In this document: in pieces, positions 6,933-41,341 of the stretch
Layout of the letters: each line of letters starts with the position of its first letter
Position numbering within the stretch: position 1 is the first letter of the stretch
Assembly (NCBI GenBank): GCA_018221105.1
Contig: JAAOYA010000010.1
Coordinates: 145,678 to 209,677, forward strand
Direction of reading: 5' to 3'
DNA from: Candidatus Woesearchaeota archaeon
GTDB taxonomy: Archaea; Nanobdellota; Nanobdellia; Woesearchaeales; JAAOYA01
Length of the DNA stretch: 64,000 nt
Made by a program: the position numbers and the translations under genes
The notes under the pieces: generated by a model
What the model was told of the DNA's origin: nothing
Database searches by the model: none
What the model saw: only the letters and a program-made list of their open reading frames with translations

Positions 6933-7003
6933 AACAAGCTCTCAAAGATTCTTATTTAATAATTTATCGTCAATTTTTTATATAAGACAATTTTTGTCAT
7001 AAC

Positions 7004-38136: not shown

Positions 38137-38210
38137 GGGCGGTCGCCGGGAATTGAACCCGAAACTGGAGATCCACAGTCTCCTATGATAACCATTTCAC
38201 TACGACCGCC
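38137..38210 (-). tRNA. tRNA-His (anticodon GTG) with genomically encoded G-1
   Basis: Cloverleaf G(-1)-GCGGUCG-UA-GUGA..UCAU-A-GGAGA-CUGUGGA-UCUCC-AGUU-UCGGG-UUCAAUU-CCCGG-CGACCGC-C73. The extra 5' G pairs with C73. Confidence 0.8.
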
Positions 38211-38248: not shown

Positions 38249-38773
38249 TTAGCCTTTGATGGCGTGTACTGGTGTTGTTTCTACCAGTAAATCTTTCAAG
38301 TAAAAAAATGAGAATGCTAAAACGTACAAGGCTATTATTGGTAGCATGTTTTTAAATTCCAGTCCTGCAAAGTTTTTTACTAGCAGTACCATAACTGTTA
38401 TAGAGATTAACGCCATTGATGGTATGAACAGTCCTGCAATTAATTGTTTTTCGGTTTGTACTTTTTCTAGGTCTTTGATTAAATGGTTGAACATATAGCC
38501 AAAACTTCCGCCTATTGTTATTATAAAAAAGTACATTGCAATACCTTTTGTCAGCATTAGTATTGGCGCTAGTATGAATACTACTATCATATTGCCAAAA
38601 ATTGTGAGCAGTAACGCCATCCAATAAACAAACTCTCCTATTGTTGGGAAAAAACTGCTTTTAGAAATTGTTTTATTGTTTTTTTTTGTTGGCTTGTTTA
38701 ATATTTTGAATGCTTTGTCTACTTCTTCTTTGCTCCAACCCTTTGCTAGGAGTTCTTCTTTAGACCAAGTCAT
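38249..38773 (-). CDS. hypothetical membrane protein (last gene of minD operon)
   Basis: 174 aa, four TM helices; start overlaps the minD stop by 4 nt. Confidence 0.5.
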   Translation of the reverse strand: MTWSKEELLAKGWSKEEVDKAFKILNKPTKKNNKTISKSSFFPTIGEFVYWMALLLTIFGNMIVVFILAPILMLTKGIAMYFFIITIGGSFGYMFNHLIKDLEKVQTEKQLIAGLFIPSMALISITVMVLLVKNFAGLEFKNMLPIIALYVLAFSFFYLKDLLVETTPVHAIKG

Positions 38774-39546
38774 TTTTTTAAACCTACTTGTTTGAGAACG
38801 TTTTCAAACAAATTACCCTTTTTTTGTAGTGTGCTAATATATTGCTTTCCTAAAAGTTTTGCTGCAAGACTTTTATAGCTTTGACTTGCCGCGCTTTGTG
38901 GATTATAATAGAATAACGGGTTTTTTAAGTGTTGTGCTTTTGCGTGATTCTCGTCATAGGGAATTGTCTCTATTACTTTTGTTTGCAGCATTGCCTCAAC
39001 TTCTTTTTTTGTAAGCTCCAATGTATTGCCGCGTACTTTGTTCAGTACAACGCCTAATATTTTCGCGCCGTGATCTTTTGCTATTTTAATGGTTTTTAGC
39101 GCGTCGGTCACTGCTGGCACGTCAGGTGTTGTTATCATTAATAGTTCGTCACTTGCATTTATTGCTTGAACAAATTCTTTGCCTAAACTTTCACTAGTAT
39201 CAAGTATTACAACATTGGCCGTTCCAACAAGCTCTAATAATATTTCTTGCAATCTTGAATAATCAATGTTTAAATTGTCAACATTGGTGCTTGCAGGTAT
39301 TATTATCAGCCCGCTTGGGTGGCGACAAGCGCAATCTGTAATGTTTTTTATTCCTTGCAATGCATCACCAATGGTGTTTTTGACTTTTGTAGCTCCTAAG
39401 TACAAGCTTAGGTGAGGGTTTTGCTTATTAGCATCAACTACTACTACACTATGGCCGTAATCGCTTATGGCTTGGCCTAAATTGATTGCTGTTGTAGTTT
39501 TTCCAACACCACCTTTTATTGACGTTAGGGCAATGTACTTAGTCAT
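38770..39546 (-). CDS. minD: MinD/ParA-family P-loop ATPase
   Basis: Deviant Walker A SIKGGVGKTTTAINL; 258 aa. Confidence 0.85.
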   Translation of the reverse strand: MTKYIALTSIKGGVGKTTTAINLGQAISDYGHSVVVVDANKQNPHLSLYLGATKVKNTIGDALQGIKNITDCACRHPSGLIIIPASTNVDNLNIDYSRLQEILLELVGTANVVILDTSESLGKEFVQAINASDELLMITTPDVPAVTDALKTIKIAKDHGAKILGVVLNKVRGNTLELTKKEVEAMLQTKVIETIPYDENHAKAQHLKNPLFYYNPQSAASQSYKSLAAKLLGKQYISTLQKKGNLFENVLKQVGLKK

Positions 39547-39994
39547 TTTCTAAAAGTTCTTCGATGTGTTTTACGTACTCGCGCGCTTTATTATAATAAT
39601 CAGTGACTGTCTCTATTTTTATTCCTATAACATCTTCTAATATCACTGTCATTGTAACGTGGCGTCGGTACTCGTTTTTGCGCGTGAATTCTGCTCTGTT
39701 GACACGGCGCAAGAATAAGTAAAAAGTGATCATTTCTTGTATTAATTCATCATCAGCGTATGCTTTTTTTAATGTGTCTGCTTTTAGTGCTGGTGTGGTT
39801 GGCAAATCAATTATCTTATTTTCATCTTTGGCTTTTTGTGCTAGCGCGTCAAATAAGAAGTCTATTGCATCAATTAATCGTATTACAACACTTTTTAGAA
39901 CATCACATGTGCGAGCGTATTTTAGTGATACGTACACGAGGTGGTCGACTCTTTTGAGTTCTTCTTTTGCACTCTCAATGTATTCTTCTATCAT
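39539..39994 (-). CDS. hypothetical protein
   Basis: 151 aa; overlaps minD start by 8 nt and the upstream gene by 4 nt. Confidence 0.45.
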   Translation of the reverse strand: MIEEYIESAKEELKRVDHLVYVSLKYARTCDVLKSVVIRLIDAIDFLFDALAQKAKDENKIIDLPTTPALKADTLKKAYADDELIQEMITFYLFLRRVNRAEFTRKNEYRRHVTMTVILEDVIGIKIETVTDYYNKAREYVKHIEELLEND

Positions 39995-40461
39995 TTGTTT
40001 TCAAGTAAGGTAATTAACTGTTTAATAAAAAGTTTTGCCTTAAGCAAATACTTTTTCAAGTCATTTGCAGTGAAAGTTTTCATTCTATAATCACTACTGC
40101 ATATTACAAAAGCGTCTTTTCGCTGAAATTCTACAGGGCTTTTCTTGTGCATTTGTATTATCTCATGTAATTCACGCATCAATTTTACCATTTCAACGTC
40201 TAAATTTTTTCTTGTTACTATTTTTTCTCTAAAAAGTCGTATTTTGCTTTCAAAATTGTCAGGGTATGCTGGGATGCGCTTGTACAATCGCTCGTATGTT
40301 AGCACACTATCCATAGCGCTTTGCATACCTAAAAATATGTTTTTTAAAACAGGCAACAATAACTTGTTATCACGTACTAGCGGGTAAGTTTGTGTTAGCA
40401 TGTGATCTGCAAGATATAGGTATCTTTGAGCTTGATTTTTTTGTGTTATTACCTCTTCCAT
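39991..40461 (-). CDS. hypothetical protein
   Basis: 156 aa helical protein. Confidence 0.45.
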   Translation of the reverse strand: MEEVITQKNQAQRYLYLADHMLTQTYPLVRDNKLLLPVLKNIFLGMQSAMDSVLTYERLYKRIPAYPDNFESKIRLFREKIVTRKNLDVEMVKLMRELHEIIQMHKKSPVEFQRKDAFVICSSDYRMKTFTANDLKKYLLKAKLFIKQLITLLENK

Positions 40462-40507
40462 CGATAAAAAATATACTTGATGTTATATAAAAGAATAGCG
40501 GAAAAAT

Positions 40508-41311
40508 TTAGTTTTCACCAGTAGGATATTCTTCAATATAAGCTTTAATAAGCTCTTCAAAAAAAGTTACAGCTCTAGTCAAGTAATCCAACATCATTTC
40601 AGGTTGGCAGTACAAGGCGCTCATCTTATCAAGATTTTCTATTTTTCTTAAAGCTCTCCACTCTTGAACTACAGAATTATCTATTTGCGAAAATAGTCTA
40701 TTTTCTAATGGCTCTGATTTTCCGTAAGGATATGATCCTTCAATCATACAACCAGCACTGTTTGGTGCTGCAATAGTTTTTTGCATAGCTTCACGAAACT
40801 TTTTAACAAACTTTTTGTAATCTGTATTTTGATAATATTCTGAAAACAGAAGACTTTGACGTACATTTCTTAAATTCCACCTAAATACGGATTGTCCTGT
40901 CAACCCAGCGATTTCATATCGAAATTGACTTCTATAATCAGGTCCAAAACATGCTTGAGAGTTTTCAAAATGTTGTTCGAAGTGCGGGTCAAAGCAATTA
41001 AAGCGTCCGTCACGCATTGTAGCAAGGTCTGCAACACTAACTTGAAAGTCATGAGAATACACTTCTAATGCTTTTGCAACAATTTTTGATAATTCTTTAA
41101 ACTTTTCTTTTTCAATAATTATATCATCACCAAAAATAAACAAACCATCAATATCACTTTCTCCAAAAACACAGTCATCACGCAGTATTGAACCATGCAC
41201 AATAAAACTTAATTCTTCAATATCAGATCTTTTTAGTTCACTCACTAAATAATCAATAAATCCTAAATAATCTGCTTTAGACGGTCTTTTCTTATCGTAT
41301 CCTAATACCAT
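40508..41311 (-). CDS. Pol-beta-superfamily nucleotidyltransferase domain protein
   Basis: hGS...x12...DiD motif: IVHGSILRDDCVFGESDIDGLFIFGDD. The ~170-aa C-terminal region is unassigned. Confidence 0.55.
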   Translation of the reverse strand: MVLGYDKKRPSKADYLGFIDYLVSELKRSDIEELSFIVHGSILRDDCVFGESDIDGLFIFGDDIIIEKEKFKELSKIVAKALEVYSHDFQVSVADLATMRDGRFNCFDPHFEQHFENSQACFGPDYRSQFRYEIAGLTGQSVFRWNLRNVRQSLLFSEYYQNTDYKKFVKKFREAMQKTIAAPNSAGCMIEGSYPYGKSEPLENRLFSQIDNSVVQEWRALRKIENLDKMSALYCQPEMMLDYLTRAVTFFEELIKAYIEEYPTGEN

Positions 41312-41341
41312 AGGCGGGTGCCTGAGAACTTATATAAAAAT

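Follow-up and report, generated by a model that had tools for sequence, protein, structure and literature searches.

A conserved DPANN operon encoding paralogous proteins of predicted HEPN fold, an archaeal MinD and a membrane protein

Introduction

Proteins of the HEPN-T clade, including AF0298/UPF0332 (PDB 2hsb) and HepT toxins such as SO_3166 (5yep), are the closest known to the two small proteins described here. The HEPN motif Ex3[KR] was defined by Anantharaman et al. (2013, PMC3710099), who also proposed that ParA/Soj-HEPN dyads of the MAE_18760 family are toxin-antitoxin systems in bacteria. For DPANN archaea, a cluster table (Makarova et al. 2019, PMC6393860) lists cls.004259 (NEQ050) as 'MNT fused to HEPN, typically in house-keeping context' and cls.004340 (NEQ484) as 'alpha helical protein, house-keeping context', the latter entry giving no description of fold or operon.

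MinC and MinE do not occur in archaea, and no partner of an archaeal MinD is known outside the haloarchaea. In Haloferax, MinD4 and MinD2 position the motility and chemotaxis machinery and are encoded near che and arl genes; the MTS of MinD4 is essential, and its gene neighbourhood pointed to its cargo.

We analyzed a locus in a 64,000-nucleotide stretch (the window) of a Candidatus Woesearchaeota archaeon contig, in which genes for a nucleotidyltransferase (NTase), two small proteins (ORF2 and ORF3), a MinD ATPase and a membrane protein (TM) lie in a row. A literature search on HEPN, MinD and Woesearchaeota/DPANN returned no description of this operon.

Results

The locus holds two transcription units

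The features of the locus are as follows.

41331..41338, minus strand: TTTATATA box, putative NTase promoter, 20 nt before the NTase ATG
40508..41311, minus strand: NTase, 267 aa, adjoining the conserved operon and outside it
40484..40491, minus strand: TTTATATA box 23 nt upstream of the ORF2 ATG, putative promoter for the four-gene operon
39991..40461, minus strand: ORF2, 156 aa, paralog of predicted HEPN fold without the RRH triad, accessory and missing in some clades
39539..39994, minus strand: ORF3, 151 aa, protein of predicted HEPN fold, conserved core of the module
38770..39546, minus strand: MinD ATPase, 258 aa, archaeal type and accessory, with a deviant Walker A motif and a C-terminal amphipathic tail, NLFENVLKQVGLKK
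38249..38773, minus strand: TM, 174-aa membrane protein, core partner of ORF3
38137..38209, minus strand: tRNA-His, synteny anchor downstream of the module and outside it

An earlier note on this DNA had read the five genes as one tightly coupled operon. The five minus-strand ORFs it listed, with their lengths, motifs and overlaps, are all real. ORF2 and ORF3 share ATGA (4 nt), ORF3 and minD share ATGACTAA (8 nt), and minD and TM share ATGA (4 nt). The N-termini match those of homologs in alignments (MEE.. and M.EE.. for the two small proteins; MTK[FY]IA.. for MinD; M....L.EKGW for TM), and the overlaps are therefore not artefacts of wrong start codons, a doubt that the note itself had voiced. 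Junctions of -4 and -8 nt were seen again in dozens of other genomes and are the commonest junction lengths elsewhere. With the 4-, 8- and 4-nt overlaps of the window, this recurrence supports translational coupling of the last four genes in one operon.

The inclusion of the NTase gene in this operon did not hold. The spacer between NTase and ORF2 is 46 nt long and holds a T5 tract immediately after the NTase stop codon, followed by a TATA-type TTTATATA box. This box occurs six times in the window, in every case 20 to 36 nt upstream of a same-strand ATG ORF of at least 80 aa. By BLASTP and an NTase family HMM of 110 members, the NTase is missing at all 80 related loci, and among the 81 genomes examined it occurs at this position only in this one. 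Its relatives occupy five different, unrelated housekeeping contexts, and a comparison of the small genes upstream of NTase homologs found no ORF2- or ORF3-like gene beside them. In other genomes, the junction between NAC and the module carries other inserts (a hydrolase, a Cys-rich 622-aa protein, a CorC-type transporter and a DoxX-like protein), none of which was an NTase. Because the gene has its own putative promoter, is missing at 80 of 80 loci and has relatives in five contexts, it is not part of the unit. Thus, the region consists of a monocistronic NTase gene and a four-gene operon, ORF2-ORF3-minD-TM.

These results bear directly on a toxin-antitoxin or defence reading, in which the NTase would be an MNT antitoxin that AMPylates the HEPN toxin or toxins, or MinD would be the antitoxin as in ParA/Soj-HEPN dyads. 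The NTase gene does lie immediately upstream in this genome, which favours that reading; its absence from every related locus, its putative promoter and its five unrelated contexts argue against it. The NTase rather appears as a DPANN gene in its own right, inserted into housekeeping contexts, which corrects the interpretation of the region as an NTase-HEPN toxin-antitoxin or signalling cassette.

The NTase carries H39-G40-S41, x11, D53-I-D55 and a third carboxylate, D95, in agreement with the Pol-beta NTase pattern hG[GS]-x9-13-Dh[DE]h. G40, D53, D55 and D95 are invariant in six homologs, and the Pol-beta-type assignment first made from the GS...DID motif is therefore sound. The window protein falls below every Pfam cutoff, and Pfam, NCBIfam and PADLOC scans assign it to no family; its relatives match PF01909 (26.3 bits against a cutoff of 21) or PF18765. 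A PDB search with the NTase profile returned only designed repeats and short NTase-core matches, the match to CdnD (E = 0.005) covering 46 residues only. The PADLOC Cyclase profile scored 15.9 bits on a P-loop-like segment only. Identity as a CD-NTase/CBASS cyclase was rejected, with NCBIfam CBASS_cyclase_b at 11.1 bits against a cutoff of 200. The architecture is a Pol-beta NTase domain followed by a putative C-terminal helical HEPN-like domain.

ORF2 and ORF3 are paralogs with a predicted HEPN fold

An hhalign comparison of ORF2 with the ORF3 family gave a strong match (96.9%, E = 1.8e-10). In the predicted structure, an insert separates helices 2 and 3 of a four-helix up-down bundle, as in the HEPN fold (about 100-150 aa), and the nearest structures by Foldseek were HepT toxins (best E-value, 0.04). 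HEPN families in Pfam and NCBIfam gave no match at E <= 0.1 for the window proteins and 32 ORF3 homologs, and a PDB sequence search with the ORF3 family profile gave none at E <= 10. Scans of the window proteins with Pfam, NCBIfam and PADLOC returned nothing for ORF2 or ORF3, and member-wise Pfam scans of the ORF3 family yielded weak, scattered matches only. No sequence profile from Pfam, NCBIfam, PADLOC or PDB searches detects the fold, and HEPN membership rests on the predicted structure. The search for HEPN domains in the two small ORFs, which the earlier note had suggested, was accordingly positive at the level of the predicted fold, with sequence profiles silent. Altogether, the comparisons and structure predictions indicate that ORF2 and ORF3 are paralogs, probably of HEPN fold, in a family outside current profile libraries.

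Residue conservation in ORF3 was assessed across 188 sequences. Helix 1 carries E11-E12-L-K-R15, in which E12 and R15 are invariant and E11 is present in 139 of the 188; the Ex3[KR] motif holds in most sequences. Position 105 is Arg in 154 sequences, Lys in 27 and non-basic in 7, and after six further residues H112 follows (185 of 188), with R110 and R111 invariant or nearly so. A predicted beta-hairpin holds this R/K-x6-H element, some 15 residues ahead of the last helix and not at its N-terminus. In total, 12 residues of ORF3 are invariant, and most of them are polar. ORF2 keeps a basic residue (R114) at the motif and has no His there; its conserved residues are D19, H20, Y26, D31 and H105-KKSPVEF-x-R114. 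None of its 59 homologs has a Pfam domain on record, and the named ones belong to Woesearchaeota, Nanoarchaeota or Nanobdellota. A toxin function would be compatible with the predicted HEPN fold, with HepT toxins as its nearest structures, and with the conserved Tyr/Phe near the His of ORF3 (E-[YF]-RRH); the proposal of ParA/Soj-HEPN dyads as bacterial toxin-antitoxin systems (PMC3710099) points the same way.

MinD is an archaeal-type ATPase and TM a predicted four-helix membrane protein

MinD scored 193.3 bits against TIGR01969 (minD_arch), below the cutoff of 201.75, with a full-length match (4-250 of 251); among PDB entries, A. fulgidus MinD-1 is its closest relative (1hyq, E = 7.5e-38). 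Its deviant Walker A motif, S-I-K-G-G-V-G-K-T-T (residues 9-18), has the signature Lys, which is kept in most module MinDs. The initial identification of a MinD/ParA ATPase was thus correct and can be narrowed to an archaeal-type MinD without known Min partners. One clade lacking ORF2 retains MinD, but with the signature Lys replaced (GNAGQGKTT). The window MinD ends in NLFENVLKQVGLKK, and about two-thirds of 46 module MinDs end in ..LLxKLGL[KR], a tail whose amphipathicity was judged by eye. Of 80 loci, 45 have MinD between ORF3 and TM, and most of these show -4 or -8 junctions. Two known systems were considered and dropped: Get3/Get1-like tail-anchor targeting, given that the ATPase, a 258-aa MinD, matches ArsA over the P-loop only, and the archaeal Dip divisome-positioning system, which is GTPase based and unrelated.

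TM was described at the outset as a 4-TM protein, and inspection bears this out, with a Lys-rich N-terminal domain preceding four hydrophobic stretches. In the TM alignment, a putative cytoplasmic N-terminal domain of three helices (L.EKGWSxEE) precedes four hydrophobic helices, the second and third of which are joined by a conserved loop; the window TM lacks the His residues of this otherwise conserved DIEH..HH loop. RecX_HTH1 matched the N-terminus weakly in 11 of 26 members and was the sole recurrent Pfam match, with no family otherwise assigned; a PADLOC scan gave no match for TM.

The ATPase raises the possibility of a Min-like positioning or division system. MinD would then be central and TM the topological anchor. 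ORF2 and ORF3 would be four-helix proteins without catalytic activity that serve as adaptors or regulate the ATPase, in the manner of MinE, MinC or ParA partners, and no RNA would be involved. An archaeal MinD with the signature Lys and an amphipathic tail would suit this role, in a domain of life that has no MinC or MinE and in which MinD partners are not known; however, the operon lacks MinD in about 40% of lineages while ORF3 and TM persist, and in one clade MinD itself lacks the signature Lys. ORF2 has no motif His, and many HEPN-fold domains are noncatalytic (PMC3710099), but the 12 invariant, mostly polar residues of ORF3 fit a ligand or active site better than an adaptor surface. We therefore consider a Min-like system doubtful. 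Roughly 40% of lineages do without MinD, which leaves it a modulatory role at most.

The module is conserved at a fixed housekeeping position

ORF3 relatives were present in at least 593 GTDB species representatives, and the family comprises 839 clusters at 90% identity. Most records are labelled Woesearchaeota or Nanoarchaeota, and the context was of DPANN type in all loci examined. The position is nearly always Sec61beta-NAC-(ORF2)-ORF3-(MinD)-TM-tRNA-His-S13-S4-S11-RpoD, where parentheses mark genes missing from some loci, and tRNA-His lies just downstream of TM, on either strand, in most related loci. NAC and ORF3 share a 4-nt overlap in seven genomes.

ORF2 is missing in about 20 of 80 loci, which cluster on the ORF3 tree, and TM adjoins ORF3 (or MinD) in 53 of the 62 loci with enough flank. 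The full ORF2-ORF3-minD-TM arrangement occurs across most deep clades of the ORF3 tree, and losses are clade specific. ORF3 and TM thus form a near-constant core, and ORF2 and MinD were lost in separate clades. The full arrangement is probably ancestral, and the retention of context across the deep ORF3 tree is consistent with vertical inheritance. The gene order could have been simply a known archaeal minD neighbourhood; the order is indeed conserved, but the partners are uncharacterised proteins, and the earlier description of an uncharacterised membrane-associated module is still fair for the four-gene operon.

The flanks, GyrA-Trm14-Sec61beta-NAC and S13-S4-S11-RpoD, are as conserved as the module although their genes are functionally diverse. 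Synteny extends over the entire GyrA...RpoD region throughout the clade, and the adjacency to NAC and ribosomal genes may therefore reflect inertia. The same observation, together with the independent loss of MinD and ORF2, would also suit four unrelated genes without a common function, kept adjacent by the general synteny of a slowly rearranging housekeeping region. However, stop/start overlaps of 4-8 nt join all module genes in many divergent genomes, ORF3 and TM come to overlap or adjoin directly in most of the loci that have lost MinD, and ORF2 and ORF3 are paralogs. Adjacency without a common function is improbable in view of these features.

The same distribution weighs on the toxin-antitoxin reading. 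Toxin-antitoxin systems are patchy, whereas the module is found at a fixed position in at least 593 species with its context kept across the deep tree. A scan of viral contigs found no relatives of ORF3 or the NTase, PADLOC gave no match for ORF2, ORF3 or TM, and the core partner of ORF3 is a membrane protein and not an ATPase. MNT-HEPN (MntA-HepT) systems are co-transcribed NTase/HEPN pairs of patchy, mobile distribution; here no such pair is conserved, and the distribution is neither patchy nor mobile. The defence flavour given to the locus in the earlier note is contradicted by its fixed position, species range, deep conserved context and lack of viral-contig relatives. A toxin-antitoxin or defence function is accordingly unlikely, and the specific schemes with the NTase or MinD as antitoxin have very little chance of being right.

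Discussion

Woesearchaeota-type DPANN genomes are tiny. At least 593 species representatives of such archaea retain the module in one fixed place, amid genes for translation and secretion, which argues for an important function. As the best reading, we infer a HEPN dimer with a housekeeping role that is docked on the membrane, binds or cleaves an RNA or nucleotide, and is positioned or regulated by MinD. ORF3 would pair with ORF2 as a HEPN-type dimer, or form a homodimer in genomes that lack ORF2. A cluster of invariant His, Arg, Lys, Tyr and Asp residues, comprising DH in helix 1, K25/Y26/R28/D31 in the helix 1-2 turn and E-[YF]-R-R-H before the last helix, would bind, and probably cleave or sense, an RNA or nucleotide ligand. 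The dimer may dock on the cytoplasmic face of TM through the N-terminal three-helix domain and the helix 2-3 loop.

ParA/MinD ATPases are generally encoded next to their cargo or adaptor. On this basis, an ATP-bound MinD dimer, held on the membrane by its C-terminal amphipathic tail, may position or gate the ORF3-TM complex. The role would be housekeeping and not defence, as suggested by the fixed position and the lack of viral-contig relatives. Taken as a whole, the account of two transcription units, a conserved ORF2-ORF3-minD-TM operon with paralogous HEPN folds and a membrane-docked mechanism is one in which our confidence is evenly balanced.

A much narrower version holds that the ORF3/ORF2 HEPN dimer is an active RNase, which TM tethers to the membrane and MinD controls spatially, and that its targets are mRNAs or tRNAs where co-translational secretion takes place. 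We give this version only a slim chance. If it were true, the module would be a DPANN-specific archaeal analogue of membrane-anchored HEPN RNases such as Ire1, and its coupling to the Sec61beta and NAC genes would be functional. The broader reading of a membrane-docked HEPN dimer would place a HEPN-fold family in housekeeping rather than conflict, and the module would supply a defined group of candidate partners or cargo for an archaeal MinD.

Comparison with known systems

In contrast to the HEPN-T clade, the ORF3 model has a three-stranded sheet before the last helix, with E-[YF]-RRH inside the sheet, and neither ORF2 nor ORF3 has a profile-level match to any HEPN Pfam family. The two proteins are paired with a paralog and a membrane protein instead of an MNT, at a fixed housekeeping position consistent with vertical inheritance. 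The module resembles ParA/Soj-HEPN dyads in gene arrangement, with a gene of predicted HEPN fold beside a SIMIBI-class deviant-Walker-A ATPase. Those dyads, however, are found in bacteria with a patchy distribution, and a defence or toxin-antitoxin role is predicted for them, whereas the module has an optional archaeal MinD, two HEPN paralogs and a membrane protein at a conserved housekeeping locus.

Among the DPANN clusters (PMC6393860), cls.004259, as described in the table, matches the putative architecture and the housekeeping contexts of the window NTase. ORF3, likewise compared by description only, resembles cls.004340 in being mostly alpha-helical, DPANN specific and in a housekeeping context. 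The window MinD belongs to the same ATPase family as 1hyq and Haloferax MinD4 and MinD2, shares with them the archaeal lack of MinC and MinE, and carries an amphipathic tail as MinD4 does. Its neighbours differ from those of the Haloferax proteins: in these DPANN archaea, MinD is encoded beside proteins of predicted HEPN fold and a 4-TM protein.

Gene organization of the locus

The five minus-strand ORFs were all present exactly as the earlier note had given them, in a Candidatus Woesearchaeota MAG (locus tags GOV04_05495 to GOV04_05505; GC content, ~36%). The GyrA, Trm14, Sec61beta, and NAC genes lie upstream, and tRNA-His, S13, S4, S11, and RpoD lie downstream.

Features of the locus
40508-41311, minus strand, nucleotidyltransferase-like gene (NTase), 267 aa
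39991-40461, minus strand, ORF2, 156 aa
39539-39994, minus strand, ORF3, 151 aa
38770-39546, minus strand, MinD, 258 aa
38249-38773, minus strand, membrane protein (TM), 174 aa
38137-38209, tRNA-His(GTG), adjoining the membrane-protein gene downstream

The overlaps at ORF2/ORF3, ORF3/MinD, and MinD/TM (ATGA, ATGACTAA, and ATGA; 4, 8, and 4 nt) were confirmed as genuine, with the start codons supported because the N-termini line up with those of homologs. The -4 and -8 junctions were the commonest type among related genomes too. Of the five-gene, NTase-centered operon proposed earlier, the coupling of ORF2-ORF3-minD-TM (the module) held, but the NTase gene fell outside the unit, with its own TATA-like box, a spacer before ORF2, and no relatives at 80 related loci (ORF3-centered, ±8 kb), whether by BLASTP or with a 110-member family HMM.

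The spacer between the NTase stop codon and ORF2 is 46 nt long. A T5 tract opens it, and it includes a TTTATATA site 23 nt ahead of the ORF2 ATG; a separate TTTATATA is located 20 nt ahead of the NTase ATG. This octamer occurs only six times within the 64-kb window (positions 6977, 8190, 13143, 24622, 40484, and 41331). Because all six sites precede a same-strand, ATG-initiated ORF of ≥80 aa by 20 to 36 nt, the octamer probably acts as the archaeal TATA box of short-leader or leaderless genes. This pattern suggests a strong TATA consensus and leaderless or very short-leader mRNAs in this organism.

The NTase gene and its insertion site

A word-index search recovered 5 NTase homologs versus 251 cluster representatives by exhaustive profile search, nearly all of 260 to 285 aa, and the relatives therefore form a coherent family. 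This family (P0180-P0334) is fast-evolving and badly undersampled by k-mer-seeded searches. The catalytic hGS...DxD...D signature was invariant in the aligned homologs, and some members match PF01909 or PF18765. Homologs were found between RpoD and L18e, after enolase, adjoining MnmA, PNO1-KH, and eIF2beta genes, and among genes of no recognized function; the small genes upstream of the homologs that were compared were unrelated to ORF2 and ORF3.

The window carries the NTase at the NAC-module junction (41312-41341), where other genomes carried unrelated genes (loci L002, L012, L023, L029, and L061). Two of these loci encode a CorC/CNNM-type CBS transporter; the others have a DoxX-like membrane protein, a Cys-rich protein of 622 aa that looks secreted, or an alpha/beta-hydrolase-like gene in opposite orientation. 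The junction is therefore a variable insertion site. NAC overlaps ORF3 by 4 nt in seven genomes without ORF2. A 4-nt overlap of NAC with the first module gene (ORF2, or ORF3 where ORF2 is absent) was observed at L005, L007, L018, L019, L022, L026, L030, L034, and L036, a hint that translational coupling may extend from NAC into the module in such genomes.

Distribution and history of the module

The module is a conserved operon of translationally coupled genes among housekeeping neighbors; it encodes two proteins with a predicted HEPN fold, a membrane protein, and, optionally, MinD. ORF3 had 839 homolog clusters, and at least 593 of the GTDB species representatives have a relative; ORF2 had 59 clusters. 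The conserved DPANN-type context was present at 80/80 loci. Synteny of the four module genes with no shared function is an improbable alternative. Most loci were labeled Woesearchaeota or Nanoarchaeota. Many were labeled "uncultured Methanosarcinales archaeon" (L004, L010, L017, L024, L027, and others) and one "Candidatus Aminicenantes bacterium"; these are probably mislabels or misbinned contigs.

Architectures at the 62 loci with enough flank
NAC-ORF2-ORF3-MinD-TM, 21
NAC-ORF2-ORF3-TM, without MinD, 13
NAC-ORF3-MinD-TM, without ORF2, 8
NAC-ORF3-TM, without MinD and ORF2, 8
Partial architecture, 12

In 53 of these loci the TM gene adjoined ORF3 or MinD, and where MinD was missing, ORF3 and TM mostly abutted or overlapped (-4); ORF3 and TM form the core. 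In a neighbor-joining tree of ORF3, the full arrangement occurred in most deep clades and losses were clade specific (one clade without MinD, one without ORF2 and MinD, and one without ORF2). This distribution makes the four-gene order the probable ancestral state. Most loci have tRNA-His directly downstream of TM; its strand varies, so it has been inverted in place several times. A tRNA-Leu(GAG) after RpoD is similarly conserved.

A reading as a toxin-antitoxin (TA) or defense module was not borne out. Bacterial ParA/Soj-HEPN dyads are proposed TA systems (PMC3710099), but the fixed position and broad distribution of the module, the absence of ORF3 and NTase relatives in a scan of viral contigs, and the unlinked NTase make such a role here very improbable.

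Protein features

Over 188 nonredundant ORF3 sequences, E12, R15, H18, K25, Y26, R28, T29, D31, R39, E108, R110, and V113 were invariant; H112 was present in 185, and an Arg occupied position 105 in 154 sequences, with a Lys there in 27. ORF3 contains R/K-x6-H and E-x3-R elements, which are features of HEPN domains (PMC3710099); its motif His, however, lies in a predicted hairpin rather than at the helix N-terminus. ORF2 shares DH (helix 1), Y26, D31, and EFxR with ORF3 and lacks the RRH triad.

The TM protein begins with a Lys-rich domain of ~45 residues with a conserved L.EKGWSxEE motif, and weak RecX three-helix matches were found in 11/26 members. Our reading of the alignment places four hydrophobic helices after it. 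Most members carry DIEH-x3-4-HH, which could be a metal or ligand site, in the loop joining helices 2 and 3; at residues ~100 to 111 the window protein reads DLEK..EKQ, with all loop histidines absent. The positive-inside rule would place both this loop and the N-terminal domain on the cytoplasmic side.

The module MinD appears to belong to the archaeal family, with the signature lysine and an amphipathic C-terminal tail common to about two-thirds of module MinDs. A Min-like positioning system with ORF2 and ORF3 as inert helical adaptors is unlikely. In the ORF2-less clade (L020, L031, L040, L049, L068, L074, L076, and L077), MinD has GNAGQGKTT versus GKGGVGKTT, so that the deviant Walker A motif has lost its signature lysine; the C-terminal ..L..LGL tail is kept. 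ORF2 loss and signature-lysine loss coincide in this clade.

Proposed function and comparison with known systems

In the proposed mechanism, ORF3 would, like other HEPN domains, form dimers, either with ORF2 or with a second ORF3, and these would dock on TM from the cytoplasmic side. The invariant basic and His pocket of ORF3 would take up a nucleotide or an RNA, with cleavage of the RNA a possibility. MinD would be attached to the membrane as an ATP dimer and would gate the complex or set its position. Such a role for MinD is in keeping with the rule that ParA/MinD genes adjoin those of their cargo, as Haloferax minD4 adjoins motility genes. We give this overall picture even chances; RNA cleavage specifically is less likely than not.

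The module is broadly conserved, and its organisms are uncultured. No description of the module or of the ORF2/ORF3 HEPN family was found in the searchable literature. ORF3 may correspond to cls.004340, one of the "enigmatic" DPANN clusters, which is described as alpha-helical and as having housekeeping neighbors. The archaeal Dip positioning system is unrelated. HEPN-T domains, archaeal MinD, and the bacterial ParA/Soj-HEPN dyads are precedents for parts of the module. The best predicted structural match was the HEPN-T structure AF0298; a conserved N-terminal His with a retained basic residue is the proposed alternative active site of AF0298-type HEPN domains (PMC3710099), and this pattern is likewise present here.
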